Below are positions 25,321-45,228 of a stretch of DNA of 64,000 nt, piece by piece. The notes beneath the pieces are model-generated. The model saw only the letters and a list, made by a program, of their open reading frames with translations. It ran no database searches and had not been told where the DNA came from. The position numbers and the translations under genes were made by a program. The first letter of the stretch is position 1. Each line of letters starts with the position of its first letter. The stretch is taken from NCBI RefSeq assembly GCF_054482595.1, contig NZ_CM137008.1; one strand, given 5' to 3'.

Positions 25321-25323
25321 TAT

Positions 25324-25354
25324 CTGTTCCATATCTCACAGAGATATGGAACAG
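25324..25354. terminator. Bidirectional hairpin between the small ORF and the convergent 3-gene operon
   Basis: ctgttccatatct (25324-25336), 5-nt loop, agatatggaacag (25342-25354) is a perfect 13-bp stem, flanked by AT-rich sequence, lying between two convergent stop codons. Confidence 0.5.
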
Positions 25355-25366
25355 AATCATAATTAT

Positions 25367-28300
25367 TTACTCGCTAACCATCTTACTGAATAACTTCTCC
25401 AGATAAACGGGGCCTGTATCCTCAATAAAAAGCACATTTCTGGCTTCCAGATTTTCTTTTGAGTCAGGTACGTTTACTAAGTCAACATAACAAGTTTCAG
25501 AAACAATAAATGCACTTAATGATAAGTTATCATCCGATAATTTATGTTCAAGATTCTTAATTTCTTTATATAATCCGAACTTCGGATCATCAAGATTAAG
25601 ATTGCGAATGCCTTTTGGATCAATAAGACTTAGCCATTGTTTACCACTTTTATCATCGACTAACCACAATAAGAAATCCGGATAAAAATTACCCGCAGTA
25701 GCAAAGCCCAGGCCTTTATTTTTAGAATCCGCATTTCTTAGCAGATATAAACTTTTATCACCAATAATTTTCTGCCCTTTTGTCGAATCAACAAAAGACT
25801 GAAGATCCTGAACAAAAGTAATCTCGCTTGGCGCACCAAGTGCTGCCGGTCGCATTTTTAGCGGTATATTGGCATTTTTTTCAATCGAAAGAAGCGGGTA
25901 ATAGAGATGTTTATCAAAGGTAATAGCAACCATCCCGGATGCACTCCAGGATTTTGCTTTACCGATTTCGCCGTCGATGACCAATTGTTGTAATTGTTCC
26001 AGCCGACTGGCATAAGCCAACCCATCATCAGTTTCTTCGATCTCGAAATGGTACATTTTGATCATACCAGGATCATCTTCTTTCACCTGCGTGACTTCAT
26101 AAAACTGACCTTCATAAGCATTTTTCAAGGTGTTGTAAAAGCGATCAGTATAATCAGTCAGCAGACGAAGCATAATATCTTCCTGCTTAGCAATATCTGC
26201 ATATTGCTTAATCTCAAGCTCTGAAGCTGGAATCAAAAGGGTATACCAACTATTTCCGATCTTTGTCTTACCGGTACAAAAGTCGATCAAACGTTGTTTA
26301 TCCACACGTAAATTTGACCAGCCGCGTTGTAGTTTATAATTCTGAATGGCGAGATAAAGCCGATCAAAATCAAATGCACTAATGATTTTATAATCTAACT
26401 TCGCTTCATTGCGCACGTTAACCGGAGTATTGTCCCCTTTTCTGCTGGTATCAATCGACTCAAGTTTCGGGTATAAGTCCAGCTTAATATGCGGCTGCTT
26501 AATTTTCCCCTGAAAATCAGCAGGAACTTCATACAATTCAGGAAAATAGACACGTTTAAAGCCGAGTCTTTGATTATCTTTATAACCATCTTTAAGCTTA
26601 AGTGTTTTAAGCCTGGTTGCTGGCATATTTGGCCGAGTTTCAAAATTCAGCTCAAGGATCTCGTCACTTGGCGTAATCCCTTCATCTTCCAGGTATTGTT
26701 TAAAGGTTGCCATGTAATCGGCACGTACACCGAATACATTCAGTGTCTCTAATTTTTCCAGATGCAACCCTTTCGGACGCTCACCGGGTGTACTGCGTTT
26801 CAAAGAATAATTGCGACCTTTAAGGCGTACGCCACGACCAAATAACTGAATGATCTGTGAACCTTCTCCACGGCCCATATTGAGCAATCCCATCGTTGAG
26901 ACGCGCCAACTGCTCCAGCCTTCAGTAAATTTTCGCGAGCCGATCAAAATATGTAGTCGCGAGTCTTTGTCATTTAACGTATGAAAGAGTGACTTTGCAA
27001 AATCATCTCTCTGATAATCAAATGTCGTATCCTCTTCACACATTTTGTAAAGAGACGGTGCATCACCAATATTGATAAGGCCAAACGGTTCGGCCTCACC
27101 AACCTGTAATGCCAGTTCACCTTTACTGCCTATTAAATTCAGAACTCGCAGTCGCTGACCAGAGTGAGTGGTGTTAAACAAGCGAGAAAGAATATCTGCG
27201 TAGATATCTTCCGGAGCGTTCATTAGTGCAGTAAAGCGATTTTCAAAAATGTTACGCTCTTTGGTATCGAGGATTCGCGCTTTATTTTTAATGAGATCGT
27301 TAATCCACGCTTTTGCCTGCGTTTCGTGGTTTAAAAACCATGCTAAAAAACGCAATACTGCGTGAATGTCTGAATCTTCACCACTTACCGTATTACCGAC
27401 AAAAACCCACAGCGGTTTTTCGATATTAAATTCACTTAATTTTTCTTTATTCTTATTGAATAAATATTGTTGCTGATAAAAGCTGAGCAAACACGCGGTA
27501 AAATACTCATACCGACGCTCATCTTTTTTATCCTCTTCAGGATTAAGGTTAAGAATCAGTGATTCTTTACCATAACCATCCTCATAGAAGAATTTATAGG
27601 AGTAATCGAACAGAATCGATTTTCCATAGACCTCTCGCGTCGCCTGAATACGCGCATCTCGTTTTTCTTCGCTGGTTAATGCTATTTGCGCTAACTCTTC
27701 TTCGTTCAGTTTACCTAAGGCCGTTGTTTCAAAAAGCAGCTTTGCTTTTTTCTTCTGAATTTCTGTTTCAACTGCCTCAACATTATTGCCACCGGCTACT
27801 GCCTGGCCAAAAGTTGCTGAATATTCAAACGCAAATCCGTCACGTGTTAATTTGTCACGACGGCGCATCCAGGCACCAGCAGCACTTCCGGTGCCTTTAT
27901 GCCCTTCATCAATCAGAACCAGATTGTTGCCTTCAAATGCCTCAACGGCAACAGTTTTGTCACCCATTTCATCGGCAAGTTTATTGATATCAATAACTTC
28001 AATCGTGCCTTTGAAGGGCGCAGATTTACTCTTATCGAATAACTGGTATTGGGTAAATCCTGAGTTTTCCAGCTCATCTAAATGTTGCTTCGACAGGCGT
28101 TCATCCGGAGTAAGCAGGATGATTTTGTCGGGGTAATGGTGGGTATTACCGTTCTGGAAATAATGTAAGTATTGCAAAATATTGACATGCAATAGCAGTG
28201 TCTTACCAGAACCAGTAGCATTCCAGTATGCCAGTTTATTCAAATCATCCAGAATATATGATTTGAACTGATTAGCCCGGTCTTTTGCTGTTTTATCATT

Positions 28301-28747
28301 TTCAGCATTGTATGCTGCCAGCTCGTTATTTAGCCCATCGAGTAATTGCTGTTTACGATTGAAGTACCAGTCCAGGTAGATCTCGGTAAACAAAAGCGAC
28401 AAGTACTGAAAATATTTCATGTTCAGCACAGTGTCTTCTTTGCGATTACGGTGCTCAGTTATCTGCTGCCAGTGCTGCACGATATTGAGATCGTAACGAC
28501 GCAGTTCATCGAGATCGATAAGATCGACCTCGAATAAATAGTTACTCAGCTCATGGAAGAACAAACTTTGGCCATCCTCATGGATGCCTTCAAAGCGATC
28601 TTCACCTAACCGATTCTTCAGACCTTGCAATGTGCCATCTTTAAAAAAATGGAACATAAAGCGGTTCAAAACCAGTTGCTTATGAAAGCTCAGTTTGCTG
28701 TTTGTCTCTTTTTTAACAGCTTTACCGGTGGTCGGTTTTTTAGCCAT
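25367..28747 (-). CDS. SF2 helicase with C-terminal PD-(D/E)xK-like motif (Type III Res-like), third gene of the operon
   Basis: 1126 aa; Walker A NATGSGKT (~aa 177-183), DExH-like VLIDEGHKG (~aa 278-286), SAT-type motif III (YSATFG), motif VI-like QLFGRGVRL, and near the C-terminus YPDFLLWLVDDKSGKQWLSLIDPKG, which fits a PD-(D/E)xK nuclease signature; start overlaps the upstream gene's stop. Confidence 0.65.
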   Translation of the reverse strand: MAKKPTTGKAVKKETNSKLSFHKQLVLNRFMFHFFKDGTLQGLKNRLGEDRFEGIHEDGQSLFFHELSNYLFEVDLIDLDELRRYDLNIVQHWQQITEHRNRKEDTVLNMKYFQYLSLLFTEIYLDWYFNRKQQLLDGLNNELAAYNAENDKTAKDRANQFKSYILDDLNKLAYWNATGSGKTLLLHVNILQYLHYFQNGNTHHYPDKIILLTPDERLSKQHLDELENSGFTQYQLFDKSKSAPFKGTIEVIDINKLADEMGDKTVAVEAFEGNNLVLIDEGHKGTGSAAGAWMRRRDKLTRDGFAFEYSATFGQAVAGGNNVEAVETEIQKKKAKLLFETTALGKLNEEELAQIALTSEEKRDARIQATREVYGKSILFDYSYKFFYEDGYGKESLILNLNPEEDKKDERRYEYFTACLLSFYQQQYLFNKNKEKLSEFNIEKPLWVFVGNTVSGEDSDIHAVLRFLAWFLNHETQAKAWINDLIKNKARILDTKERNIFENRFTALMNAPEDIYADILSRLFNTTHSGQRLRVLNLIGSKGELALQVGEAEPFGLINIGDAPSLYKMCEEDTTFDYQRDDFAKSLFHTLNDKDSRLHILIGSRKFTEGWSSWRVSTMGLLNMGRGEGSQIIQLFGRGVRLKGRNYSLKRSTPGERPKGLHLEKLETLNVFGVRADYMATFKQYLEDEGITPSDEILELNFETRPNMPATRLKTLKLKDGYKDNQRLGFKRVYFPELYEVPADFQGKIKQPHIKLDLYPKLESIDTSRKGDNTPVNVRNEAKLDYKIISAFDFDRLYLAIQNYKLQRGWSNLRVDKQRLIDFCTGKTKIGNSWYTLLIPASELEIKQYADIAKQEDIMLRLLTDYTDRFYNTLKNAYEGQFYEVTQVKEDDPGMIKMYHFEIEETDDGLAYASRLEQLQQLVIDGEIGKAKSWSASGMVAITFDKHLYYPLLSIEKNANIPLKMRPAALGAPSEITFVQDLQSFVDSTKGQKIIGDKSLYLLRNADSKNKGLGFATAGNFYPDFLLWLVDDKSGKQWLSLIDPKGIRNLNLDDPKFGLYKEIKNLEHKLSDDNLSLSAFIVSETCYVDLVNVPDSKENLEARNVLFIEDTGPVYLEKLFSKMVSE

Positions 28748-28749
28748 TC

Positions 28750-31700
28750 TTAAACCTCCTCCGCAAACATCAGGTTCAAGAATTCAGGTTCGATCTGGCG
28801 GATTTTCAGGCTACGAACAATCTCGCCGTCTTCTTCATCAACGGTAAAGGCGGTAGGCAAGTTATGATCGCCATTGATATAGATAACGTCATACGTGTTT
28901 TCTTTTGCATACAAATCAAATCGGTTAGCATATTTATTCAATTCTTCATAACCGATCTTGTCGCAATCGCGCCACAGAATAAGGGTACGCTCGCCTGTTG
29001 GCAGCGTACCTTCAACACGCACATAGCCACGTTCGATATTGGATTCGATGGATTTCACATGTAATCCAATGAGATAGTTGAAAGTTTCAACTAAATCGAT
29101 GTTTTTACGCTCAGTGGCACCGGCGGAATCCGTCGCAATATCCATTTCGTAGTTAAATGGTTTTTTGAAATTATCGATTCCGAGAAAAGAATCTTTACTC
29201 TCATTTTTAATGAGATAATTTAATAGATAATCATTCCTCACATCTGAAGGCAATGTTTCGAAAAGATCTATGGGAGATTTTTTCAGTACTATATTATTTA
29301 AGCAATCTTCATAGCTTTCTAGTTTAATTGTTTTAAGAATATGTGATATACCGTTTTTATCCTGTGGATAACCTTTATTCCACTTATCGCTATAAACGGC
29401 TTTTACAATTCTAGCTTTTATAACTGAATCAGAATGTTCTCCCATTTCAACTAATATATATTTATGATCTTCAGATTTTTCTCTATTTCTATTAATAACA
29501 GCATGTGCGGTGGTTCCACTGCCGCCAAAAAGATCGACTATGGTTTCATTATTAGCACTATGCCATACTGAATCAATAACGCGTTCCATAGTACCTAAGG
29601 ATTTTGGATAAGAAAACAAACCTGCAGAGCCAAACATGGACGTTAATAAATTTGTGCCACCTATGGTAGCATTATATTGTGATCCTTGCCAAATACTAGG
29701 AAGCAGTAACCTTCTTGCGCTATCATGATATAATCTGTTTATGACAAATTTGTTTGAACTTACCAATTCACCTACTTCAATTGCTTTTTTAGCCCCTTCA
29801 TAAGAAAGCGACCAAACTCTTTCTTCCCCATTCTCACCAATGGGATAGACTCTTTTTAAACCTTCTTTGGTTTCACCTACCGGATAATTACCTTTTTCTA
29901 AAGGAACAGGTGGTGGTTCGACTCCTTTAACTTCAAATGTATCAGGGTCAACCAAAACTGCAAAAAAGCTTTCTGGACGACCAGGATTACCAATCCTAAA
30001 ATTATTATCTCCGGTACCAGCTCTTCTAAAACCTCTAGTTCGAATTCCATCCTCCACACTATCCCCTTTGAGAATATCCATTCCTTCTGGTATAGAAAAC
30101 AGACAATATTCATGTGTTCTCGAAACATTTGTTCTACCTGTCCCAGACCCAGGATAGTGCTCAACGATACATTGTAAAACCTCTCTTTCTGGATTGATAC
30201 TTTTTTCCAATTCTTTTAAAAGAGACATTTCTGTATCATCAATAGCATAACAAAAAACACCGTTATTATTTAATAGTTTTTTAGATAAAATGATTCTATC
30301 AGCCATTAATGTAGCCCATGAAGAATCCTTATATCCATTTTTATATAAGATAGGAGTTGCATCAGTATTATATGGTGGATCAAGATATATTATGCTTGTA
30401 CTTTTATCAAACTTAGTCTCAAGGATTTTTAGGGCTTGATAATTTTCAGAGTTGACCAATAGCCCATTAATCTCATTATCAATATTATCAATTGATCGAA
30501 TCAGTTCACATTTAAATTTAGAATCAAAAAAAGTAGTATCAACCATCAGATATGGTGAACTCTTGAGAAATTTCATATCCCGAGAGTTATGCTGTTGAAA
30601 TAGACCTAGCGTACTCCAATGTTTAAATTGTTTATCATTTACTAATATAGTTTGATAAAGAGCATCTGGAATTCTATCTAAAGTAATACAGTATTCCGTA
30701 GAAACAACAAACTTCTTCTTAGTCCAAAGTTTTTTCTGGAAATTCTCAATTTGTGCCAAAAATGTAATGAGTTCCAGTGCAACAGTACGCAAACATTGAA
30801 TCATGCGCAATTGTTTCTCAATATTGGCAAACACTTCTGCATTTTGCACATTATCGAGATTCATTACTTCATTTTTAATATAAAAATCCAGTTCGTTCGT
30901 TAAAAAACCACCGAGATCTTTATGGATAAAGTAGTCTGCTGTATTACGCTGGGTATAAGTTGTAAGGTGACGCTCCAACTCTGTACGTGACGGATTTTTT
31001 TCTGTTGGCGCACGTTTAGCAAGATCAACCCAATGCTGTTGAACTGTTTTATCTGCCAGAATTGTTGAAATAGCGGACTGTACTAAAGCATCCTGCTTAG
31101 TGCCCTTTTTCATTGCCTTATATTCGAAGTGAATAACTAACTCTTCTGTTTCAACGAGTTTACCGTCCACCACAGATGAGTTTTTCACCACTTCTACTGG
31201 CTTATATTCTTGTTCATACTCATCACCTTCTTCATCAATTTTGGTACGAACATGTGGCTCAATAAGTACAAAGCAGCGATCTAATTCATTATCCTTACGG
31301 TTATCTTTTGCTGTGTCCGCTGCGAGCAATTTAAAGCTAACTTTACGACCATCATCTAATTTAAATGAATAATTAGCAAAGTTTTCGCCACTTTTAATGT
31401 AGTACTGGTCCTTATTTGCCCAGTGCAACATCACTTCTTCGCCAGAATAAGGGATGGCGTAGGTATTACCTTTATAACGGCGTTTGCTGATAAAATCGCC
31501 GTTGTCATAATAACGAGAAAAGAAAGTGAGCAGATGGGAAAATACTGCATTTTCATGCTCATTTGCTCCGGATGCCATAGCCGCCAGTTGCTTTTTAAGC
31601 TCCTGTACTTTCGGGCTATCAGCAGGGTCCACACCCGCATCAGTTGCCGCTTTTATTGTCAGTTGCAACTGATGTTCTAATTCTGATTTATTGGCATTTC

Positions 31701-31884
31701 CTGCATCCGCCAGCGCAGACTGGATTTTGGCCTTCAGCTTATTATCCAGATAGTCGTTAATTTCATCAGCACGTGCATTTAAAATACGATAAATACCGAA
31801 ATCCAGTTCTGGTCGATCAATCTGAAAAATTTCTTTTAGCTTCTTAACTAATTCGTTGTACTTACTCATTATTTTCTCTTTCAA
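28750..31884 (-). CDS. Beta-class DNA amino-methyltransferase (N6-adenine or N4-cytosine; Type III Mod-like) with ~480-aa N-terminal extension
   Basis: 1044 aa; catalytic motif IV IIYLDPPYNT (~aa 498-507) lies before the AdoMet motif I DLFGGSGTTAHAV (~aa 784-796), the circular permutation of beta-class MTases; the N-terminal ~480 aa is unassigned. Confidence 0.7.
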   Translation of the reverse strand: MKEKIMSKYNELVKKLKEIFQIDRPELDFGIYRILNARADEINDYLDNKLKAKIQSALADAGNANKSELEHQLQLTIKAATDAGVDPADSPKVQELKKQLAAMASGANEHENAVFSHLLTFFSRYYDNGDFISKRRYKGNTYAIPYSGEEVMLHWANKDQYYIKSGENFANYSFKLDDGRKVSFKLLAADTAKDNRKDNELDRCFVLIEPHVRTKIDEEGDEYEQEYKPVEVVKNSSVVDGKLVETEELVIHFEYKAMKKGTKQDALVQSAISTILADKTVQQHWVDLAKRAPTEKNPSRTELERHLTTYTQRNTADYFIHKDLGGFLTNELDFYIKNEVMNLDNVQNAEVFANIEKQLRMIQCLRTVALELITFLAQIENFQKKLWTKKKFVVSTEYCITLDRIPDALYQTILVNDKQFKHWSTLGLFQQHNSRDMKFLKSSPYLMVDTTFFDSKFKCELIRSIDNIDNEINGLLVNSENYQALKILETKFDKSTSIIYLDPPYNTDATPILYKNGYKDSSWATLMADRIILSKKLLNNNGVFCYAIDDTEMSLLKELEKSINPEREVLQCIVEHYPGSGTGRTNVSRTHEYCLFSIPEGMDILKGDSVEDGIRTRGFRRAGTGDNNFRIGNPGRPESFFAVLVDPDTFEVKGVEPPPVPLEKGNYPVGETKEGLKRVYPIGENGEERVWSLSYEGAKKAIEVGELVSSNKFVINRLYHDSARRLLLPSIWQGSQYNATIGGTNLLTSMFGSAGLFSYPKSLGTMERVIDSVWHSANNETIVDLFGGSGTTAHAVINRNREKSEDHKYILVEMGEHSDSVIKARIVKAVYSDKWNKGYPQDKNGISHILKTIKLESYEDCLNNIVLKKSPIDLFETLPSDVRNDYLLNYLIKNESKDSFLGIDNFKKPFNYEMDIATDSAGATERKNIDLVETFNYLIGLHVKSIESNIERGYVRVEGTLPTGERTLILWRDCDKIGYEELNKYANRFDLYAKENTYDVIYINGDHNLPTAFTVDEEDGEIVRSLKIRQIEPEFLNLMFAEEV

Positions 31885-31889
31885 ATCAA

Positions 31890-34781
31890 TTAAATAACTT
31901 TCCAGCGGATGGAAAAAAGCTCGGTGATATCCGTTTTTTGCTTCATCCGCTCTTCAAGGGCACTGATGAGTTCATCCCGCTTGTCGGCGATCTCATCTTC
32001 AATGTCAAAAATTTCCATACGTTGGCGCTTCTGCTGCCGCTCCAGTAGCTTCAGCTTTTCCTGGTTTTGCTTTTGTTCTTCGATCGATTGTGCCAGTCTG
32101 GCTTCTCGCTTCAACGACTTGATTTGCATTTTGGTATCGCGTAATGCTTCTTCCGCCGCAAAGATCATGTCTTCAGCCCATTTTTCCAGCTTATCTCTTT
32201 CCGCTTCAAAAAGGACATTGTTCTGCTCCAAAACTTCCGCAAGCCTGGCGTCAATTTGCCTGTTCTTGAGTAAGATCAAGTCATCAGGTAATGCATCTAA
32301 ACTTGCCGAATTATCCAGCTTTTCGTTGGTTATTGCAGACAAGTTGAACAGACGTTTACAAGCCTCACCATCTACCACACGGCCGCTGTCAGTTTTCGCG
32401 GTAAAGACTAAAAATTGCTGCCGGTTAAACGCATCAACAGTAAGCAAATTTAGTGTTAACCACCCTGATAGCCCTTTCAGCTGCTCAGCCACCGAGACTT
32501 TCGTTGTGTGGTTACTGTAATCGAAGATGACTTCAGCTGTTTTCGTCTCCTGGGCTTTGGCTCCCTCAATGACGTACTCACCCAGCGGATGATTGATCCG
32601 ATATGCAAAACTGTGGTGATCCTGCATTTGTAACGCACTATTTTGCCTGCCATCTTTGCGCAACAGCTGATACTGCCCCACAGGCAGTTCATTGACTGAC
32701 TCACGTAAAGTAAAACGATGATGCTCATGATCAAAATCAGCATATTGTTTGAGCTGCTGACAGGTAACGGCCCAAAACCAACGACCGACTTTATCCAGAC
32801 GCTCCCGAGCTTCATCAAGCCTTATTTTAAGGATATCGTGAATATCTTCATCAAAATGCTCAAGCAACTGTTCCTGCGTCTTCTGCATCTTGAGATTGAT
32901 TTCATCTTCCAGCTCTTTCTGCAACCTTTCAAAAGCCAGCTCTATCTCCTCGGGGGTACGGCATGACTCATAAATTGACTGGATCCTTTTTTCAAAATCC
33001 ACTCCATTTTCTATGCTGCCAAGCACACTATCCGATGCACCAAACACGCCATCAAACAGGCTGAACTTTTCAGTTAAGAGTTCAAGAACTCGTTGATCGG
33101 CCTGGTTTCGCTGATTGAGGAAGTTAATAACAACCACATCAAACTTTTGCCCGTATCGGTGACAACGCCCAATACGCTGTTCAATGCGTTGTGGATTCCA
33201 GGGTAAATCGTAATTGATCAGTAGCGAACAAAATTGCAGGTTCACCCCTTCAGCTGCAGCTTCTGTAGCTATCATGATTTCAGCATGATCTTTGAAGTGG
33301 TCGATCAAAGCCGAGCGTTTATCAATTTGCGCCGACCCGGTAATACGAGAAGATCCCTGATATTCCTCGCGCCATTGCTGGTAGATCTTGTTTGCCTGCG
33401 GTGTATTGTTTGTGCCACTAAAGGTTACTACTTTCCCCTGGTAGCCATTGTTTTCCAGAAAATGTGCAAGATACTGTTGAGTTCGCATTGACTCCGTGAA
33501 GATGATGACTTTTTTTGCAGCCCCCATTTCGGCAAGCTGTGCAAAACCTTGCTCCAGGCCAGAAAGCAACTCTTTTGATTTGGTATCAGTGCCAATCTGT
33601 TCTGCTTTGACAATGAGTGATTCCAGCTCATTGATTTCTGCCTGAAGCGCGTCTGAATCGACAACTTTGCACTCGGTATCTAAAGCCACTGATTCGGCAT
33701 CTTCCACGATGTCATCTTCAAGATCGTCATCCATTATGATCTGTTGGATGATGTTCATATCATCTTCAACGATACCTTCCAGCTTTAACCTTTCTAAACG
33801 ACTCTTAAGGATCTGCAAGTTATTCAATACAGCTTTCGTACTTGAGGAAAGTAGCTTTCTGAGAATAAGCCCCGTCAGATGCCGGTGTCGTTTTGGTAAG
33901 GCATAGCTATCCTCACGTTCAAGCAATTTTTGTACGCGTTCATAAAGATCCTGCTCCTGTTCGCTCGGATAGAAAGGAATAGTGATCGCTTTACGTTCTG
34001 TATACTTGATGTACTCCAGCACATTCTTGCGTAAAGTTCGTTTGATAAAACGCGACAATCGCCCCTTCAACTCCGCAATATCGCTATCTGCCTGCATATA
34101 TTGCTTTCTGAACGCTTTAACTTCGCCGAAGGTATGTTCATCTATAAGCGTCGACATGCCATACAGTTCCATTAACGAATTCTGTAAAGGCGTTGCGGTC
34201 AGTAGTAATTTTTTCCGCCCATCAAGCGCACGCTTTAACGCTTGCCCCATTTTGTTACTTTCTCGATGAGCATTACGCAGTTTATGGGCTTCGTCGATAA
34301 CAACCAGATCCCACATTTCAGCCACCAATTTTTCTTCTAACCGAGCAGCATAGTGGTATGACATGATAGTGATCGATTTATTATTTAAGGGATTATGGAT
34401 CCCTTCTTTTTGAAGCTGGCTATACGTTTTCGCGTCCAACACCTGAGAAGGTAGATTGAACTTTTCCTGTAACTCGCTCGCCCATTGGCGACGCAGTGAA
34501 GCAGGACAAATGATCAACAGTTTACGTTTTCTTTCAGCCCACAACTGGCAAAGCACTAACCCCGCTTCAATGGTTTTACCTAAACCAACTTCATCGGCAA
34601 GCACAACACCTTTGCTTAGCGGATTTTCAATAGCAAAAAGAGCCGCCTCAATTTGATGAGGATTTAGATCTACGCTTGCATCAAACAGCGATTGAGACAG
34701 ACGGTCCACCCCATTGTTTGAATGGAGAATGGAAAGTTCATGCGCAAAATATTTCGCATGATAAGGTGTTGTACCAATCAT
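31890..34781 (-). CDS. SNF2/RAD54-family helicase, first gene of the operon
   Basis: 963 aa; motif I LADEVGLGKT (~aa 61-70), motif II VVIDEAHKLRN (~aa 160-170), motif III LLLTATPLQN, motif VI QRIGRCHRYGQK; long charged coiled-coil C-terminus. Confidence 0.75.
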   Translation of the reverse strand: MIGTTPYHAKYFAHELSILHSNNGVDRLSQSLFDASVDLNPHQIEAALFAIENPLSKGVVLADEVGLGKTIEAGLVLCQLWAERKRKLLIICPASLRRQWASELQEKFNLPSQVLDAKTYSQLQKEGIHNPLNNKSITIMSYHYAARLEEKLVAEMWDLVVIDEAHKLRNAHRESNKMGQALKRALDGRKKLLLTATPLQNSLMELYGMSTLIDEHTFGEVKAFRKQYMQADSDIAELKGRLSRFIKRTLRKNVLEYIKYTERKAITIPFYPSEQEQDLYERVQKLLEREDSYALPKRHRHLTGLILRKLLSSSTKAVLNNLQILKSRLERLKLEGIVEDDMNIIQQIIMDDDLEDDIVEDAESVALDTECKVVDSDALQAEINELESLIVKAEQIGTDTKSKELLSGLEQGFAQLAEMGAAKKVIIFTESMRTQQYLAHFLENNGYQGKVVTFSGTNNTPQANKIYQQWREEYQGSSRITGSAQIDKRSALIDHFKDHAEIMIATEAAAEGVNLQFCSLLINYDLPWNPQRIEQRIGRCHRYGQKFDVVVINFLNQRNQADQRVLELLTEKFSLFDGVFGASDSVLGSIENGVDFEKRIQSIYESCRTPEEIELAFERLQKELEDEINLKMQKTQEQLLEHFDEDIHDILKIRLDEARERLDKVGRWFWAVTCQQLKQYADFDHEHHRFTLRESVNELPVGQYQLLRKDGRQNSALQMQDHHSFAYRINHPLGEYVIEGAKAQETKTAEVIFDYSNHTTKVSVAEQLKGLSGWLTLNLLTVDAFNRQQFLVFTAKTDSGRVVDGEACKRLFNLSAITNEKLDNSASLDALPDDLILLKNRQIDARLAEVLEQNNVLFEAERDKLEKWAEDMIFAAEEALRDTKMQIKSLKREARLAQSIEEQKQNQEKLKLLERQQKRQRMEIFDIEDEIADKRDELISALEERMKQKTDITELFSIRWKVI

Positions 34782-35170
34782 CTTTTCTCTCTCTTCGCTG
34801 TACTTTTGACGATAACCTGCTGAATTGAATCAAGATAGTAAAAGGATACGCCAATAGTGGTTGATCCTTGAAGTAAGGACATCTCCGGTTGCGGGCCTTT
34901 GACACATAAAATCAGCAATTTTACGCATCGTTTCATGGCTAAACAATGGCACATTAAGAATGCCACTCGCTAAATGCAATCTATTTCCTGAGCCATTAGA
35001 CCAAGGCAATGAAGTTTTATATCTACTTAATTTTCAGGATGATGAATGAACATCATTGATGGGAATGGGGCTTCCGAAGTTCTTAGATTATCAGCGTTAC
35101 ATACAAACAAAGTAGTGAAAACACAGGCACAAAAAAAGCCGCCCTTGAGCGACTCGATTTGCATACGATG

Positions 35171-35193
35171 TGGTGCGAAGGCCGGACTCGAAC
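35171..35193 (-). other. tRNA 3'-end fragment (leuX-like T-arm plus acceptor), probable att-site remnant
   Basis: Reverse complement ggttcgagtccggccttcgcacca has the T-loop GGTTCGAGTCC and a CCA end, closely resembling the 3' end of E. coli tRNA-Leu (leuX) as recalled; the sequence to the right does not continue as a tRNA. Confidence 0.55.
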
Positions 35194-35881
35194 ATGTGAC
35201 TTAACCTCATGATTTAAAATTGTTAATAATAAACAATATCATCTTATACCAACACAGATACCAACACGAAAAATCACTGGTTTTCGGCATCGAACCAGGA
35301 CAATCAGCTCCTGATTGAGATACCGAGCTCTGTTACTCGTCATCTTCCTCGACAGGCTTCATTGCATCAAGTAGTACTCGCACCATCGCGATAGAACCAA
35401 TCCGGATAAAAGCATCTTCTCCATCTATATCTGTTAACTGATATCGCTCACTTGATGCCGGATAAGTGTGTCGATTTGCAGCTGTGTACTCTTTTGTACA
35501 GCCAGAATGTGGCTGACTGAGGTGGAGCAGATAATGTCCCCGTTGACCACTTCCGGACGGGAGGCTGTGATTTCAGACATAATTGATATTCCTTTTTGCA
35601 GATAAATGAAAACGCCAGCCCTGTTCAGGCTGGCGTCAGTGGAATGAAGTATGGTGAGTAATATTTATCGGTTCTGGTGCAGAAGCTGCAGTTGGCGCAG
35701 GGTACGGATACCCTCCCTGGCCTGTTCGATACAGGGCAACAGTGCTGCCGAATCCGTTTTATCCTCATCGTTGTCAAAGATAATTCCCGATTCGCAGTCG
35801 ATATTGTCCTGCAGCCACACAATCAGAATATCCAGCGCCGTTTCTGTGGTTAATGATTTCATCCTGTGTCTTTTGTCCTGG

Positions 35882-36370
35882 TTACCAGTTGAAAGTGGGT
35901 AAATCCTGCAGACATTCAGCACCGGCATCCAGATGAATGAGACTGACGCCATAACGCCGGATGAGTGTGACAACCAGACGGCGGAACGTTCTGGACAGCC
36001 CCAGGCGTTTAAGCCGCAGAACCGGGTATGACCACGCATCGGTACGTAACAGATATCCGCTACCTGTGAAATGAATCCATTCTGATTCGCCGGTGTCATT
36101 CGTCTGATTTGACAGCGAGTACAACCAGGCATTGTCCGTTTCCGTGATATGTGCGGTACTGCAGCGTATGCCGGTAAGGGCCGCAGATGGTGGCGTGCGC
36201 TCTGCTGATGTCCGGTCAGATTCATCAACAACACGAAGGGAGTAACCGTTATCGCAGACCACGTTAATCAGTTCAGCGAGAGTAACACCATCGACGTCAA
36301 CGACAATGCGCCCCATGTTCAGTGCCTGCACGTTAATGCTGTCGGCTTCCAGCGTCAGGGCCAGTTTCAT
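35882..36370 (-). CDS. YeeW-like protein (follows CbtA toxin gene)
   Basis: Position immediately after the cbtA-like gene, overlapping its 3' end, as yeeW does in CP4-44; no domain assignment. Confidence 0.45.
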
Positions 36371-36741
36371 TGTTTCGCCCACGGATGTTTACCCAGGGTA
36401 ATGTTATTTACCGTTCTGTAATTGTCGCGGGCCATCAGGCCGGTTGCCCGGCGGGCCCGGAGGATATCAATACTGTTTATTAACTGAGAACGAGTACAGA
36501 CGCTGAATCCCGGCTGGTCGGTACGCACCAGTGCGTATTTTTCAACGAGAAAGTTCACCGCATCACACAGTGAAATGCCTGCCTCAATATGCTGCTCAAT
36601 CACACGTTCATCAGCGAACGGTGTGTCATTCAGTGTGAGGCCGTAATGCTGGTCCAGCAGTCGGGTGAGCAGTGTCTGCCAGATGGTGACGGGAGACTGG
36701 CAATGCGATGCCTCCCGTACGTGTGTATCGGGTAATGTGTT
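36367..36741 (-). CDS. CbtA/YeeV-family toxin (cytoskeleton-binding toxin)
   Basis: [121 protein letters not shown] matches the CbtA/YkfI/YpjF family; start placed at MNTLP. Confidence 0.8.
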
Positions 36742-36833
36742 CATACTGAAGATTTTCCTGATATGCAGAGATGAAAAATGGAAAAGTGGCGTGGTGAAAG
36801 CACCAGGCCGGAGAAGAAGGTTATTCTGGAGAG

Positions 36834-37202
36834 TTACTTTTTCGTTTCGGGCGTCGGATAAACAGCCATATAAACGTAGCCACAACTGCCGAGGGTGTCG
36901 GCTTCGCAGGTCAGCCTTTTTGCATACAGCGTGACGGTATGCTGATGGCGGGGATTCAGTTCACCGCTGGTGAGCATGAGTTCCAGTTGTTTCATCAGCA
37001 GCGGAAAGGCCTGGTCCAGATGGTACGCATCCGCGTCGCTGAACCGGCCTCTGATACCGGCGCGGTCTGCAAGGTAATGCAACCGGTTACCCTCCTGCAC
37101 CAGACGTGCCCCAAAACAGGGCGTCACGGTGCAGGGCAGTCCCCACCAGGTGCGGTCGTTATTGTCGTCGGGAAGCGTTGTCCCGGGGAGTGTGTCTGAC
37201 AC
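36834..37202 (-). CDS. CbeA/YeeU-family antitoxin
   Basis: 122-aa ORF directly upstream of the toxin gene; [23 protein letters not shown]... matches the YeeU/YfjZ family. Confidence 0.8.
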
Positions 37203-37281
37203 GATAAAATCCTCACAGAAAATTGGTTAAGAATGGTCCGGTGGTGGCGATAATTCTGCTCTTCTGAATGCCCTTCCAGAC

Positions 37282-37503
37282 TCAGTTCAGGGTGACGCTC
37301 ATCAGCCGGACATACGGACCAAAACTGTCCTTACGGCGTTCTGCAAACACAGCCAGCACACCGGGAATATCCTGTACTTCACGGCCGGTATATGTATCCG
37401 TGCTACCGTGCCAGCGGTATTTACCGGTACAGAACGGAAAAAGACGGGATGCAGGATGCTGACGGTGAATACGCATGGCTTCACCACGGGTGATGATTTT
37501 CAT
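37282..37503 (-). CDS. YeeT-like protein (DUF987)
   Basis: 73-aa ORF in the position of yeeT between the radC-like and antitoxin genes. Confidence 0.55.
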   Translation of the reverse strand: MKIITRGEAMRIHRQHPASRLFPFCTGKYRWHGSTDTYTGREVQDIPGVLAVFAERRKDSFGPYVRLMSVTLN

Positions 37504-37589
37504 GAGAATAGTCCTCCTGAATGTGAAAGTAAGAAACAGCTGAGAAAGAGAAACTGAAGTGATATGAAGGTGATTGTGACGGTGACGGG

Positions 37590-38066
37590 TTAAAGCAGAC
37601 CGTGTTCGGCAAAGGAGAATACCTGGCTGCCACCGACTATCAGATGGTCCGGCACCCGGATATCCACCAGGGCCAGCGCCTGTACCAGACGTTCAGTGAT
37701 AAGCCGGTCTGCCTTACTGGGGGTGACTTCACCGGACGGGTGATTGTGCGCCAGCACCACGGCAGCGGCATTGTGGTACAGGGCACGTTTAATCACCTCC
37801 CGGGGATGGACTTCTGTGCGGTTGATGGTGCCTGTGAAGAGGGTTTCACCCGCAATCAGCTGATTCTGGTTGTTCAGATACAGCACCCGGAACTCTTCCC
37901 GCTCCAGTCCTGCCATGTTCAGAATCAGCCATTCCCGTGCCGCATGCGTGGAGGTGAAGGCCACGCCGGGTTCATGAAGATGGCGGTCCAGGGTTTTCAG
38001 GGCCCGCTGAATGAGGCTGCGCTCGCCGGGCGTCATCTCTCCGGGCAGAAAGGAAAGCTGTTGCAT
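37590..38066 (-). CDS. RadC-like JAB/MPN-domain protein (YeeS/YfjY family)
   Basis: 158 aa with the JAMM-type motif VVLAHNHPSGEVTPSKAD. Confidence 0.8.
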   Translation of the reverse strand: MQQLSFLPGEMTPGERSLIQRALKTLDRHLHEPGVAFTSTHAAREWLILNMAGLEREEFRVLYLNNQNQLIAGETLFTGTINRTEVHPREVIKRALYHNAAAVVLAHNHPSGEVTPSKADRLITERLVQALALVDIRVPDHLIVGGSQVFSFAEHGLL

Positions 38067-38080
38067 TGTTCCGGCCCCTT

Positions 38081-38569
38081 TCAGTCAATGATGCGCATAA
38101 TGGCGTTGCATTCCGGATGTTGCAGGGCGTAATCCCGCAACCGATAATAATGGACCGTCATGGCATAACACTCCGTACGACAGGCATGATGACTGTACGT
38201 CATCAGACAGGCAGCAATGCCGGCGGCTTCCGGGCTCATTTCAGCGCGGTTACCGTTCATGGCATTGAACAGTACCCAGGTTTCTCCATCATCTTCATCC
38301 GGTTCGGGCGCCATAAATGCGCCGCCGTTATTCAGGGTGTACAGATTCCAGATACCACCGCAGTAGTCTTCACACAGACGGTCCATCCAGCCGAAGACAC
38401 GGGGCTCCAGGGTCACCCACTGTGGAATGAGGCCAAAGTGCTGCGGCCAGAAGCTGATGCGCTGTTCATCAGGGACGGGAGTGGCAACCAGTTGAGACTG
38501 GTTATTCCCTGATGCAGTAGTTACGGAAACAGAAGGTGTGGTGGAATTATGCGAAGAGGTTGTCATGAG
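38081..38569 (-). CDS. Antirestriction protein, ArdB/KlcA family (YfjX-like)
   Basis: ~160-aa protein in the conserved position upstream of radC in CP4-type elements; family assignment from memory of YfjX/KlcA. Confidence 0.55.
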   Translation of the reverse strand, partial: LMTTSSHNSTTPSVSVTTASGNNQSQLVATPVPDEQRISFWPQHFGLIPQWVTLEPRVFGWMDRLCEDYCGGIWNLYTLNNGGAFMAPEPDEDDGETWVLFNAMNGNRAEMSPEAAGIAACLMTYSHHACRTECYAMTVHYYRLRDYALQHPECNAIMRIID

Positions 38570-38657
38570 ATTATTCCTTATAAAAAGCAAATGAATGGAA
38601 GAATGCCTGGGGACTGGTACAGACGTGAGTCAGGGCTGCACTTTCAGGGAAACAGCA

Positions 38658-39476
38658 TCAGCGCATGCTCTCCAGCAGCGTTTCTGCCATCACCCACAAT
38701 GCGCGGTTGAGCTTAATATCGGTGTCGATGCTGTGAATGGCACGGGTGTGGATACGTTTTCCTCTGGCACTGCGACCGGAAATTCCGCCTTTCAGCATAT
38801 TCTCCTGGATGGTCTGATAAGCACTCCACAGGTCCTTACCGTAATCCTCCCGGCGTCGTGGTGTCAGAATGTCGGCAGTGGTGACTGGCTGATGTTTGTC
38901 ACCATAACGGTAAGTCAGTGCCGCCTGTGCCAGCGCCTGGCGTGCCGGTGGCGGCAGGACCAGCGACTGCATGGCATCACGCTTCTCCTCTATCCGGTCA
39001 AAAACCCCCACCACCTCGTAAGCCCCTTCAATAACTTTCTCCACCACATTTCCCCGGTGCGGAACACGCACTTCCCCCAGAGACTGACCACAGACGCATC
39101 CGTTCTGGCAGACGAACCTGAAGTAACCCGGCAGCATCTGGTAGCTGGAGGTACCGTCATGAGAGTTGAGCAGAATAATTTCAGGGACATGTTCTCCGTT
39201 TATCTCTCCGGCCCGCCGCAGACGCAGCATATGTTTGGTGTATCCCCGGCGGCCCGGGTCGCGCACACGGGTCTGGCAGGCGAAGAACGGCTGAAAGCCT
39301 TCCCGCTGCAGACTTTCCAGCACGGTGATGGTGGGGATATACGTATAGCGTTCACTGCGGGAGGTATGCCGGTCTTCCCCAAAAATACCGGGTACATAGT
39401 GCATCAGTTCTTCGTGTGTCAGCGGACGGTCACGGCGTATCTGATTCGCATAACCAAAACGACTGGCTAATTGCAT
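38658..39476 (-). CDS. DUF932-family protein (YfjQ/YafZ-like)
   Basis: 272-aa ORF; position and size match the DUF932 gene of CP4-type islands. Confidence 0.5.
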   Translation of the reverse strand: MQLASRFGYANQIRRDRPLTHEELMHYVPGIFGEDRHTSRSERYTYIPTITVLESLQREGFQPFFACQTRVRDPGRRGYTKHMLRLRRAGEINGEHVPEIILLNSHDGTSSYQMLPGYFRFVCQNGCVCGQSLGEVRVPHRGNVVEKVIEGAYEVVGVFDRIEEKRDAMQSLVLPPPARQALAQAALTYRYGDKHQPVTTADILTPRRREDYGKDLWSAYQTIQENMLKGGISGRSARGKRIHTRAIHSIDTDIKLNRALWVMAETLLESMR

Positions 39477-39804
39477 ACTTTGCTCCTTATGAATGAATTA
39501 GCGGTATAAACGAAAAGGCCGCGTCTCCCGGAGAAGACGCGGCCTGATGGATGAAATGAAGACGTTTATTGCCTGAGAATTCCCTCACTGGCGAGATACG
39601 AATTTAGCTGTTTTCCGGCATCAGGTTCAAAATTCCAGCACCGCCAGCGTAGCTGCCCTTCGGCATTGCGGATAACCAGCCGGAAATGCGTTCCCTGGTC
39701 ATCTTCAATAAGCACATTGCGGTAAGCTGTTGTGACGGCAACCGCCTGTTCGCGTGAGAAAGGGCCTTCGGGCAATAAAACAGGGTGGCAGTCCTACATA
39801 CCGG

Positions 39805-40482
39805 CTATTTTCCGATAAATTCAACGCTGGCGCCGGTGGCATTACCGTCAGCACCAACCGTGACGGTCACTTTGTCGTACGCACGGTCTTCAGGATTGAA
39901 TACTTCAAACTCAACCTTATTGCCTTTTACTTCGTAAGAGCCAAAATCAGCGGTTTCTGTTGTTTCCTCGTCATATTCCCGGGCGTATGCCTGCCGGGCA
40001 GCCTGCAGGACGGAATCTTTATCAATAGTGGTCGTCTGTTTCGGGGAAAAACCGGCAAGTGATGTGACAAATTTCGGACAGACCTTCAGCATATCACCGC
40101 GGGTGAATTCCATTCGTACACCAAATGCCTGTAAAACGGACACATCACGCTCTGCTATGGAGTGAACGGCTTTTTTGACCATTTCCGGCGCCTGTCCGAT
40201 TTCCACCTCAACAGCCCTGAATCCCGTCTGCTGATTACACATTTGTGATGTGGGGATCAGGTTACCGTTAATACTGATACGGCTGCCCAGGAGCGTCTGT
40301 ACACCATTCGGGCATCCCTGCATCAGGCCGGTAATACCAATCGTGCCATTTTTCAGCATTACCAGCGCCTGACCATCTTCCGTCATGGTCTGACACCAGC
40401 CGTTTTTGACAGCCCAGTTGCCGGCGGAGGCGGAGAATGATGCCACAGTGAACAGCAGGGGAAAAAGAGCTCTGGTATTCAT
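39805..40482 (-). CDS. Exported hypothetical protein (signal peptide)
   Basis: Start placed at MNTRALFPLLFTVASFSASA (signal peptide); the remainder has no recognisable domain. Confidence 0.4.
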   Translation of the reverse strand: MNTRALFPLLFTVASFSASAGNWAVKNGWCQTMTEDGQALVMLKNGTIGITGLMQGCPNGVQTLLGSRISINGNLIPTSQMCNQQTGFRAVEVEIGQAPEMVKKAVHSIAERDVSVLQAFGVRMEFTRGDMLKVCPKFVTSLAGFSPKQTTTIDKDSVLQAARQAYAREYDEETTETADFGSYEVKGNKVEFEVFNPEDRAYDKVTVTVGADGNATGASVEFIGK

Positions 40483-40629
40483 GACTGACCTCTGAAATGA
40501 ACGTACGGTGTTATTGATAATGATGGAAGGTATGCAGTGACTGTTCAGGGAATGACGTAGCCGTATATTTAGTTTTCTGTTCAACATATTGTCTCCATAC
40601 CTGTCGGGACGGCTTTGGCAGGCCGGCAA

Positions 40630-41310
40630 TCACAGGTTAAAGGTGTTGATAAGTTTATGGATGAAAGAGAAATGTGGCAGGGCGGAGATAAAACGCTCTT
40701 CAGCGACCAGACTGTGGATGTGGCCTCTCCGTTCAAACCGTTCTGATGTCAGGCTGACTGATTTGATATCTGCCAGAGGAAAGACCTGCAGTTTTCCCTT
40801 CTGTAACGCGATCAGATACCAGCTACCGCTGTAATAAATGAGCCGGCAGGGCTCCAGTGACGGATACCATCGCTCAGTCATCAGAGAGATGTGGATACAC
40901 TGTCTTATTGCCAGGATGAGTTGCGAGAAACACTCGGGGAACGTTGCAGTGATATCCGGCGCCGGTAGCCAGATAAGGCAGGGAGAGGGCTCCTGGTTGT
41001 CGGTAAGACAGGTTATCAGTCGTCCGTTCCGGAGCGGAAGTATCCGTGCGATCCCGGTATTCTGTATAAAAGAAAGCATTTCAGGGATCGCACCTGGGCT
41101 GCTCTGTCGTCTGAGGCTGTACCTGCCATTTCTGTACTCTAAATCCAGGTGAACCAGACGCTGATGAAAATCGCGCTGTAAAGTACGTTCTGTAACGCCA
41201 AATTCATCTGACAGTGTTTTTAGTGACAGAGATTCTCCGGCCATCAGTCGGCTGATAATGAGTGATAAGCGAACCGCCAGGCGATCATGCCGGGAACGAT
41301 TATCAGACAT
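40630..41310 (-). CDS. WYL-domain transcriptional regulator (YfjR-like, HTH)
   Basis: N-terminal HTH (RHDRLAVRLSLIISRLMAGESLSLKTLSDEFGVTERTLQRDF) followed by a WYL-like region (SGSWYLIA). Confidence 0.65.
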   Translation of the reverse strand: MSDNRSRHDRLAVRLSLIISRLMAGESLSLKTLSDEFGVTERTLQRDFHQRLVHLDLEYRNGRYSLRRQSSPGAIPEMLSFIQNTGIARILPLRNGRLITCLTDNQEPSPCLIWLPAPDITATFPECFSQLILAIRQCIHISLMTERWYPSLEPCRLIYYSGSWYLIALQKGKLQVFPLADIKSVSLTSERFERRGHIHSLVAEERFISALPHFSFIHKLINTFNL

Positions 41311-41512
41311 AGATGTGCACTCCGTAAGAAAACATCTTTTATTTCATGATGTTATTATGCATCATGATGTTGAAAGGATGTGTCGCATCCGGATAATCAG
41401 GAATAAAATGCAGCAGAAAAAATATTCTTTTAATTATCTGATTTTTAAGCATGATTTCATAAAAAGAAGAATGCTCGTTAATCCAGCGACACATCCTGTC
41501 GGCGTGAGTGTG

Positions 41513-42397
41513 TCAGAACAGACGCTCCCACAGTGTGATCAGCAGGTGGATAATGCGGTCCCGGGCTTTACGCAGAAGCTGTAACATCCAGGCCGGAAAA
41601 CTGAAACGGGCAACGGCGACGTCAAAACTTTTCCCGATGGTTTCACCAAAAGTCTGTTGTGCGTGTTTCTGGGCCTGTTCAGAGCGGTTTTCTCCCCGGA
41701 TATGTGAATACACCGCGCTGGTTGCCTGTGGTGGCAGTGCGTGGATCATCAGCGACACAAACGCCGGAAGGTTCCAGCCGACAGGTGCAGCAACGGAGAG
41801 TACCGGAAATGATGAAGGGAACAGGGTTGCCACCCGGGCTGTCACCGTCGCCAGTGAGAGCGCCTGCTGACGGGACGGGCATTTTTCTGTGGCATTCCAT
41901 TCTTCAGCAGGAAACACGCGATCGGCATGGCTGAGAACAAACAGAAAACGCGAGGGATCTGCGCCTTCATTCAGTAAAAACTGATGCATGGTAATGTCGG
42001 CGGCATACGCGCGTTCATCTGCCCGCAGGATCCAGATAATCAAATCCACTTCCGGCAGTAACTGACGGTAAAGCGCCCGGTATTCCTGATCATGTTGCGG
42101 CGTCTCTCCAATGCCGGGCAGATCGACCAGCGTCATTCTGCGTTCACCGATCTGCAGGGTAAGACGATGAGCCTGGCGGGTGCAGCCGTTCAGGGGATGT
42201 GTGGCACAGATATGGGACTGAAAAATAGCATTACACAGGCTACTTTTGCCGGTGCCGGATTTACCCATAATGCCAATCACGGGTTCGTAATGAATAACGC
42301 TGTGGAGATGTTCAAGAATTTTCTGACGAATTTCTTCAGGAAGAAACGTCAGATATGATTTCACTTGTGCGGAGAGGGAAGAATGGCTGAATGACAT
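41513..42397 (-). CDS. GTPase of the YeeP/YfjP/YkfA family
   Basis: P-loop GIMGKSGTGKSSLCNAIF, G3 motif LVDLPGIGET. Confidence 0.75.
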   Translation of the reverse strand: MSFSHSSLSAQVKSYLTFLPEEIRQKILEHLHSVIHYEPVIGIMGKSGTGKSSLCNAIFQSHICATHPLNGCTRQAHRLTLQIGERRMTLVDLPGIGETPQHDQEYRALYRQLLPEVDLIIWILRADERAYAADITMHQFLLNEGADPSRFLFVLSHADRVFPAEEWNATEKCPSRQQALSLATVTARVATLFPSSFPVLSVAAPVGWNLPAFVSLMIHALPPQATSAVYSHIRGENRSEQAQKHAQQTFGETIGKSFDVAVARFSFPAWMLQLLRKARDRIIHLLITLWERLF

Positions 42398-43712: not shown

Positions 43713-44252
43713 CACCATTTAACTGAAAGCTACCATAACGTCTTTTTGATCACACGCATGATAATGCGTCTCATTTAAATTTCGTTTTTTGGGTCATGGA
43801 AATTTTCCGAACATCAGTGATAATGAGGGTTTTGTTGTTTTTGTTTCTGCAATGTTTGAGGGCTGTTCCTGGAGACGATTCGTTGCTTGTGAGCAAGTGG
43901 TGGTCCGCTTTACTGGACGAGTTTTGCATTTGTTGAGTGGTGAAATGGAAGTAAAAAGAGCCCCTTTCTGGCAATGACTGAAAAAGTCAGTAGCGTGTAA
44001 CAGTAAAAACTAACATAAAGTGATTATCGTATGATTATGACAATAACTTATAACTTTTATGAAAAGAACAACAGAAACTACGAAGCCATAACAGATTCCT
44101 GAGACCATGTTTTCTGAGGTAGAGAAAATAATTCAAGAGTAAACCAGTTTGTTTTTTGGTCAGTAAAGAACCATGCCTGATGTGAAAACGGGTAATCAAC
44201 ATTCAGTCTGCATGGATGTTTGGAAGAGTTGAGAATGTCGGTATGATACTAT

Positions 44253-44324
44253 ATACACGTATTTTTACTAAGCATTTCAGTAAGTGTTATACACGTATTT
44301 TTACTAAGCATTTCAGTAAGTGTT
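44253..44324. repeat. 36-bp tandem direct repeat (2 exact copies, then a degenerate third)
   Basis: atacacgtatttttactaagcatttcagtaagtgtt occurs at 44253-44288 and 44289-44324, followed by atacacgtattttcataaacacttctacaagtgtt...; lies in a ~1.25-kb ORF-free stretch. Confidence 0.8.
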
Positions 44325-45228
44325 ATACACGTATTTTCATAAACACTTCTACAAGTGTTTTCGTTAAGCATTGCTATACACATCCAGTTTAGTAAATCTT
44401 TACGTTAACTAAATCAGTTTAATGCTGCTGTAAAACCTTTCTGCTTCAGCAATCAATCTGCTATTCGATTTTACTGATGTTACGTTTAACCTTTCCTGAT
44501 ATTTCGAGTTTCGACGTTAGCATGAGAAAAGTATCTTTACGCTAAATCAACCCGAACTTTCCTGAAGTAATCTGACGTTCTTTTCGATGTGCTTACGACG
44601 ATTCTGTTAAACGACTTTCTGGATGTTTTGATAACAATCAGATTTAGGCATTAACGATTCCTGACGTTTTTCTTTTCCGTGTAAGGTCATTGTTTTCGTC
44701 ATGATGTGACTCTTCTTGCATTGCGAAAGTGTGATGAACGGTTTTGGTGTTTTGATTCAGATGAAGTTTACGTTATCGATGGTTAATCGTTTTTATGGTG
44801 CGTAGTGAAACGTAACGCTTTCAGGAAGGGAAAATCGATTCTGATGGGGATGATCGTGTAACGGCGTTATCTGTAAACAGGTTTTAAACATGTCATTCGC
44901 ATCCGTGATTAAGTTGTGTGATTAAGCTGTAGGTTTTGGCGTTGTTGTTGATTTGCATTACCAGGAAGCGTTCTGGTTGCGTTTCTGGTGTTTTGTTTGA
45001 ATGTTCTGTGGATCCTTTTCCCTTCTGACTTTTCTCGTTGTCCATGTCGTTTTTAAATCCATTCGCTGTTCTTGAGTGTTTTTACCCTGTGTGTAGGATT
45101 ATCTTTTTGTTCCGTTTCAATCACTCTTAATCAGAAAGTTGTAGCATTGCTCAATGCCGGATGCCGTAAAGTTTTACCGCGGTGATTAATGATGTGAAGT
45201 CAATCCAAATCAACGGAGATCTCTCATC

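Follow-up and report, generated by a model that had tools for sequence, protein, structure and literature searches.

A displaced leuX 3' end as the very probable attR junction of a P4-integrase island beside a variable defence slot in Escherichia coli

Introduction

An intact tDNA and a displaced tDNA fragment mark the two ends of a genomic island, which is the principle underlying Islander (PMC4383910). At the tRNA gene leuX, the best described example is PAI II of the uropathogenic E. coli strain 536, which contains a P4-like integrase and published direct repeats of 18 bp (PMC9686529), and for which both excision and integration at leuX were shown to depend on Int and Xis, with re-integration into a deletion strain restoring a complete leuX (PMC3202238). 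Displaced tDNA ends are not always faithful copies, as some islands carry a short deletion situated 3 bp before the discriminator (PMC4383910). At ssrA, the displaced end of CP4-57 and of other islands with P4-type integrases has the sequence CGCCAGC-CCACCA, and a defective tmRNA was experimentally found to result from excision (PMC10107115). As referred to in PMC4383910 and PMC10107115, the primary description of such damaged fragments is that of Williams (2003; J Bacteriol 185:1059).

The window analysed here, by which we denote the whole stretch of 64,000 nucleotides, covers the fim-nanCMS-leuX region of E. coli. A sequence-only reading had singled out a short tRNA remnant in this window as an attachment site located between a CP4-type element and a defence block. 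By placing the locus next to its counterparts in related genomes, we find it very probable that the fragment is an attR junction, formed when a genomic island with a P4-type integrase entered the leuX gene, which encodes tRNA-Leu(CAA).

Results

The fragment, the displaced leuX 3' end that forms the attR core of the island, is located on the minus strand at positions 35171-35193 of the window, as defined by sequence match, alignment to leuX and the annotated core of P4 attP. Its 23 nucleotides read GTTCGAGTCCGGCCTTCGCACCA (TGGTGCGAAGGCCGGACTCGAAC on the plus strand) and correspond to the final 24 nt of E. coli leuX minus one G of the acceptor stem. While the intact gene ends in ...GGTTCGAGTCCGGCCTTCGGCACCA, the fragment lacks one G of the acceptor-strand GG, a single-base difference that is evident upon comparison of …CTTCGGCACCA in leuX with …CTTCGCACCA in the fragment. 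The unbroken identity to leuX extends over 18 of 18 nt (blastn-short, E = 1.7e-5). Of the 20-bp core annotated in P4 attP (GAGTCCGGCCTTCGGCACCA), 19 positions are present, with one G deleted within the core. The fragment comprises most of the T-loop, the 3' strand of the T-stem, the 3' acceptor strand and CCA, and it is preceded by ...CACAT instead of the GCCGG of the 5' T-stem, the 5' half of which is absent. The sequence-only reading had thus placed a 23-bp tRNA 3' end at exactly the right coordinates and strand, but had wrongly counted a whole T-arm, whose 5' stem is replaced by CACAT; the string it quoted contains 24 letters owing to an extra leading G where the actual fragment contains 23, and it did not mention the loss of one G relative to leuX. 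Its designation as leuX-like was too cautious, since the identity is to leuX itself and goes beyond mere likeness.

The remainder of the tRNA is absent, as that reading had claimed. ARAGORN detected no tRNA gene, and hence no complete tRNA, in the whole 64-kb window, and Rfam returned nothing at the gathering threshold and no tRNA match around the site (34900-35500) even at a permissive E <= 10. No cloverleaf-forming sequence of either a functional tRNA gene or a tRNA pseudogene was recognised at the fragment by these detectors, and the sole stable structure obtained by folding is the hairpin of a terminator downstream of it. A second leuX copy was not found in the window by blastn-short or mismatch-tolerant pattern searches, the 23-mer is unique in it, and none of 100 dinucleotide-preserving shuffles yielded a match to the fragment even with 3 mismatches allowed. 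The region 34966-35625 contains no open reading frame of at least 60 amino acids and no coding sequence is annotated there in RefSeq relatives, and the fragment overlaps no conserved coding domain, a property that Islander uses in the recognition of such sites.

The fragment is flanked by two arms of distinct character. On its left, the 47 nt at 35124-35170 (minus strand) constitute the leuX-downstream arm, which according to alignment, terminator scan and folding contains a rho-independent terminator (hairpin at 35155-35136 followed by T7), and which also directly follows intact leuX in the genomes of A37 and 13KWH46. On its right, an AT-rich stretch at 35194-35290 (minus strand) forms the island-side (P) arm of attR, where a motif scan revealed two tandem copies of GTTGGTAT. 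These start on the minus strand at 35265 and 35253 (spanning 35247-35265), 12 nt apart from each other and 55-75 nt from the core. By analogy to the paired 12-bp arm repeats of P4 attP, they could be arm-type binding sites of the integrase, a possible assignment for a motif whose count in the whole window (6) does not exceed chance. Related GTTGGTAC motifs are found in the attL arm directly upstream of int, in loci L002 and L005.

The nature of the junction is illustrated by a comparison of occupied and empty sites. A query of 361 bp around the fragment led to strain A37, where an annotated and intact tRNA-Leu directly adjoins the fragment and the left flank of the window, and the genes follow in the order ahr, leuX, terminator, SNF2, methyltransferase, helicase, nanS/nanM/nanC and fim, with neither an integrase nor CP4-type genes at the locus. 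A four-way alignment shows that this attB-like site shares with the window the 3' part of the tRNA and everything downstream, with 2 mismatches in ~165 nt. The similarity of the window to leuX ends exactly upstream of GTTCGAG, and the preceding 60 nt contain no residual similarity to the 5' part of the gene. Downstream of leuX in DETEC-C31 (attL), an arm of another kind, derived from the island, continues into int. The empty site that the earlier reading had suggested to seek by strain comparison was thus found in A37 and 33 other genomes, the resulting 34 genomes being those where a junction-specific query detected leuX joined to the left flank of the window. The occupied junction adjoining the SNF2 flank was found in 103 genomes, and attR at a coverage of at least 80% in about 1000.

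An intact leuX is absent from the window and present in every related genome examined, and its position as well as that of the integrase were read from two near-identical genomes, where both lie beyond the right end of the window. DETEC-C31 is collinear with the window between 12664 and 50442 at 99.9-100% identity, except for one extra IS2-like element in the window and an inverted fim switch; beyond 50442 the identity drops to ~91% and is followed by different sequence. In this genome, a minus-strand leuX is found 41 kb rightward of the fragment and is directly followed by a tyrosine integrase gene. EC052, which is 99.9% identical to the window from 35124 to 64000 and lacks the left block, encodes the same integrase protein beside a leuX that is found 39.8 kb to the right of the fragment and ~11 kb past the right end of the window. 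The earlier prediction of an intact cognate tRNA on the right has thus been borne out, in the genomes that share this sequence, by a gene on the same strand with a P4-type integrase next to it. In both genomes the fragment, a 3' end extending to CCA on the minus strand, has the same orientation as leuX and resides downstream of it. The integrase adjoining leuX, a tyrosine integrase of 421 residues, is 59.5% identical to the Int protein of phage P4 over 97% of its length, and the interval of 39.8-41 kb in the related genomes falls within the range of 2-200 kb used by Islander. Another leuX island, that of SM107, is larger and has been rearranged by IS1.

Within the window, the island body covers 35194-64000 (minus strand; delimited by the 99.9% identity of EC052 to 35124-64000) and runs off the right end. 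As anticipated from the orientation of the fragment, the element extends rightward, with the CP4-type genes beginning directly beside the fragment on that side. Its far end contains two gene remnants at 35333-35580 (minus strand), which encode fragments of an HTH regulator and of a DUF4942-like protein according to the RefSeq annotation of the 99.9% identical DNA in DETEC-C31 (offset 13999). Next to them, the CP4-type distal module at 35625-42397 (minus strand) comprises genes encoding DUF957, DUF5983, the CbtA toxin, the YeeU/CbeA antitoxin, DUF987, RadC/JAB, an antirestriction protein, DUF932, DUF905, a hypothetical protein, a YafY-like regulator and a GTPase, all of which are transcribed toward the fragment. 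Two of 10 proteins of this module, RadC and the GTPase, were also named by NCBIfam, and the remainder were named from the RefSeq annotation of 99.9% identical DNA. Further inside the island, a plus-strand gene at 52627-52860 encodes a small regulator of 77 residues, annotated as AlpA family transcriptional regulator in EC052, which is a candidate excision regulator or excisionase. The cargo of the ~40-kb island includes a phytase-like esterase, ugpB, a porin, dcuC, a malic enzyme and IS elements in EC052, and Kiwa together with a type I restriction-modification (R-M) system in DETEC-C31. At a place corresponding to ~47.37 kb of the window (L001 33331-33396), a gene of the heat-stable enterotoxin EAST1 (astA; 66 nt) is annotated in both DETEC-C31 and EC052, in a transposase remnant of the island. 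A low-GC intergenic stretch at 44252-44337 contains a perfect 36-bp tandem repeat of 2.4 copies, for which overlapping BLAST segments suggest a copy number unlike that of EC052 and DETEC-C31.

On the other side of the fragment, a resident defence block of 10.4 kb at 24709-35123 (minus strand) is located outside the island, as evident from PADLOC assignments, its boundaries relative to EC052 and its direct contact with intact leuX in A37. PADLOC identified three minus-strand genes in it, at 25367-28747 (type III REase-like helicase), 28750-31884 (type III-like methyltransferase) and 31890-34781 (DrmD-like SNF2 protein). The variable slot that holds the block extends from the leuX terminator arm to the gene of a phosphorothioate-dependent endonuclease, and EC052 instead contains 1.3 kb encoding a membrane protein there. 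The boundaries relative to EC052 are sharp, located just past the endonuclease stop codon and just past the leuX terminator, with no direct repeats seen at either of them. Mismatch-tolerant patterns and blastn-short did not reveal a leuX-derived repeat bounding the block in the window or in any of the compared loci, and neither in the window nor in A37 does the left block contain an integrase or a remnant of one. The same slot holds at least four alternative cassettes (window, L005, L009, L013 and L016), three of which are defence systems: the SNF2 and type III-like R-M genes, a lone membrane protein, a type I R-M system with McrBC (in JX21CE8), and an Eco31I-like R-M system with dcm. Everything from ~24100 to leuX is absent from K-12. 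The block varies independently of the island, because it is found without the island in A37 and the island is found without the block in EC052, JX21CE8 and strain 536. The earlier claim that it is no cargo of the CP4-like element is confirmed by this distribution, while its portrayal as a separate insertion is only partly borne out, since neither an own integrase nor an own repeat accompanies the block, and its acquisition by insertion can only be surmised. The notion that the block came to abut the island end by its own arrival has to be reversed, as the block was resident first and the island then entered between it and leuX.

Several further differences were observed on this side. The middle of the methyltransferase gene (29203-30700) gives no blastn match to the A37 copy, with both flanks being 96-97% identical, which looks like a swap of the target-recognition region. 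An open reading frame of 62 residues (34778-34966, minus strand) shares 4 nt with the start of the SNF2 gene, has no PADLOC match and is unannotated in RefSeq relatives. The nanS gene (22641-23621) has an intact frame of 326 residues and is annotated as truncated pseudogene in DETEC-C31, A37, O111 and strain 536. Between fimE and fimA, 322 bp (15902-16223) are inverted compared to DETEC-C31 within flanks of 100% identity, which is the fimS phase switch in opposite orientation. Finally, an IS2-like element between fimB and nanC (18542-19870), 95% identical to IS2K of K-12, is absent from the loci of DETEC-C31, A37 and O111.

The G missing from the fragment corresponds to G70 or G71 of the tRNA and falls within the 20-bp P4 core. 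Every intact leuX examined contains GG, and the lesions seen in the displaced leuX ends examined all begin directly after CTTCG, at a distance of 2-3 nt before the discriminator A73. The form with one G is associated with five island-side arms, namely those of the island described here, of W284, of a retron-carrying P4-like element, of MLI104K1 and of a true P4-like satellite with an arm that hardly differs from P4 attP. In strain 536, 2 nt (GC) are lost (L016 ~3390-3415), and in O111:H11 the single G is accompanied by a threefold repetition of CTTCGCAC, an 8-nt triplication (L007 8990-9020). The proposal that the one-G form is universal in displaced fragments had to be rejected, since a synthetic attR query with two Gs matched JX21CE8 at 100% (L013 ~20045-20070), and two more among the top 60 full-length matches have the undeleted length with intact GG. 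Likewise, a natural scar left after excision, in form of a one-G leuX without island, was not obtained, as both un-annotated candidates (H138 and H134) are attR sites of other P4-like elements. In two pairs of genomes, an empty site with GG (A37 and 13KWH46, respectively) shares its downstream DNA with an occupied site with one G (the window type and WP2-W18-CRE-03). When weighing recurrent damage against a single old lesion that was kept through serial replacement of islands, these two pairs appear to favour recurrence. That the missing G is an instance of a recurrent, position-specific lesion left by P4-type integration in the displaced tRNA end, rather than the product of random decay, is a suggestion that we make tentatively and with considerable doubt.

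Discussion

The assignment of the fragment as attR junction has to be weighed against accounts that involve no recombination at this position. A fortuitous match to a tRNA 3' end, for which only its short length speaks, has a negligible probability, given the failure of all shuffled sequences to reproduce the match, its blastn-short E value, and the fact that the adjoining 47 nt are also identical to leuX-downstream DNA in other genomes, a flank identity that refutes this account. Hardly more probable is the presence of a tRNA gene or duplicate that has decayed in place. The deletion of one nucleotide and the tRNA-type terminator following the fragment would be compatible with a pseudogene, but the similarity to leuX ends abruptly at the T-loop with no residual 5' similarity in the 60 nt upstream, the break coincides with the boundary region of the P4 core and recurs in genomes with five different island-side arms, and both ARAGORN and Rfam were negative.

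Two further accounts concern the DNA on the left. The defence block directly adjoins the fragment and is itself accessory DNA, which would be in line with the fragment belonging to the block as a tRNA-targeting mobile element that extends leftward. However, the tRNA from which a minus-strand 3' fragment derives has to be upstream of it, which places the element between them at higher coordinates (a rule described in PMC4383910), the block of A37 joins intact leuX at its right side and shows no repeat at its left side, and the block contains no integrase, so that we consider this account very unlikely. Of a different kind is the view of a tandem array, which extends our main explanation rather than replacing it, and where the left block would represent an older, degenerate leuX island, with the fragment serving at once as the former tRNA-proximal end of that island and as attR of the CP4-like one. 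It finds support in the absence of the entire region between ~24100 and leuX from K-12, in a further P'-like arm that directly follows the fragment in O111:H11, and in 13KWH46, where the 47-nt arm runs into a P'-type arm homologous to the attL arm of the island and then into an N-terminal remnant of a DUF4102 integrase. The 47-nt arm itself may be a relic of an older P4-type island, because of this continuation in 13KWH46. Conversely, the left block of the window and of A37 lacks an integrase or a remnant thereof, the window contains no second leuX fragment, the similarity to the P' arm stops 47 nt after CCA where the flank of the SNF2 block starts, and the left block provides neither the own integrase nor the own fragment that Islander expects for each member of an array. 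Taken as a whole, we regard a tandem array as possible but rather doubtful.

We return to the junction of a P4-integrase island in leuX, for which the following course of events is very probable. A P4-family tyrosine integrase recombined attP of the island with the 3' part of leuX, at an inferred crossover position. The island brought along a new copy of the tRNA 3' end, and leuX has stayed intact beside the integrase because the island supplied this copy. The original 3' end, now found at 35171-35193, was moved together with its terminator over a distance of ~40 kb to the opposite end of the island, and the SNF2, methylase and helicase genes are the DNA that was located immediately downstream of leuX before integration. 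Should the junction still be active, its precise excision would join leuX to the damaged end and result in a non-functional tRNA, in analogy to CP4-57 and PAI II of strain 536, and the regenerated leuX would probably be defective by lack of one acceptor-stem base. With the lesion located inside the P4 core, the site may by now be a poor substrate for recombination.

Two consequences follow for the annotation of the locus. The exact left boundary of the leuX island is fixed at 35193/35194 of the window, and the block of type III-like R-M and SNF2 genes is part of a defence slot of its own, which is located between leuX and nanS and varies independently. The feature is already known in kind and sequence, as it is an ordinary attR boundary of the kind found in PAI II of strain 536 and CP4 elements, and islands at leuX, 18-bp repeats, P4-type integrases and damaged displaced fragments have all been described in the literature. 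Of mild interest is the observation that the acceptor-stem lesion known from islands at ssrA is also found at leuX, in several length variants and in several different elements, a variety that bears on the question whether such lesions make their hosts dependent on an island. If the tentative suggestion of a recurrent, position-specific lesion were true, loss of the island would leave a defective leuX and the host would depend on carrying some leuX island, and leuX would become a selective trap in which new P4-type elements are captured time and again beside a variable defence slot.

Among the known systems to which the locus can be compared, the KpLE2/intB region of K-12 occupies the same site (ahr-leuX ... 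nanS-nanM-nanC-fim) and also has a P4-type integrase beside leuX, but this intB is pseudogenised, the cargo is different (fec, sgc and yjh genes) and a displaced leuX fragment was not detectable there by pattern search or blastn-short. The satellite phage P4 shares with the island the target leuX, the core that, except for one G, is contained in the fragment, an integrase that is related to that of the island at the level noted above, and an AT-rich island-side arm with paired short repeats as in P4 attP. In contrast to P4, no alpha primase, sid, psu or delta genes are seen in the annotated island, which is not a P4 satellite, the identity to leuX extends 4 nt further in 5' direction (GTTC, where P4 has GTTT), and the arm motif is GTTGGTAY instead of the GGGGGCA of the P4 type.

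With CP4-57, which resides at ssrA in K-12, the island has in common the integrase family, the same kind of distal module with toxin/antitoxin, RadC and antirestriction genes, an AlpA-type regulator, and a displaced fragment that is devoid of one acceptor-stem base ~3 nt upstream of the discriminator (PMC10107115, PMC4383910). Unlike CP4-57, whose target is the tmRNA gene, the island has inserted into a tRNA-Leu gene, for which the consequence of excision would be expected by analogy. The closest correspondence is found with PAI II of the uropathogenic strain 536, which resides in the same target gene following the same orientation logic, with a homologous island-side arm and with a distal order of antirestriction, RadC/JAB, DUF987, YeeU, CbtA, DUF5983 and DUF957 genes that is followed by two gene remnants. 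The unbroken identity to leuX of 18 nt corresponds to the published 18-bp repeat of PAI II, so that repeat, module and arm of its right end are all found here, and both lesions start right after CTTCG. The two islands differ in size and content, since PAI II encompasses ~102 kb with hly, prf and hek compared to ~40 kb with other cargo in our case, in the extent of the lesion, which is a loss of 2 nt (GC) in strain 536 and of 1 nt here, and in the set of genes between attR and nanS. Because they share the same distal gene order, a homologous arm and the same 18 nt of identity, the island described in our study is, as judged from these sequence features, a smaller relative of PAI II of strain 536 with different cargo.
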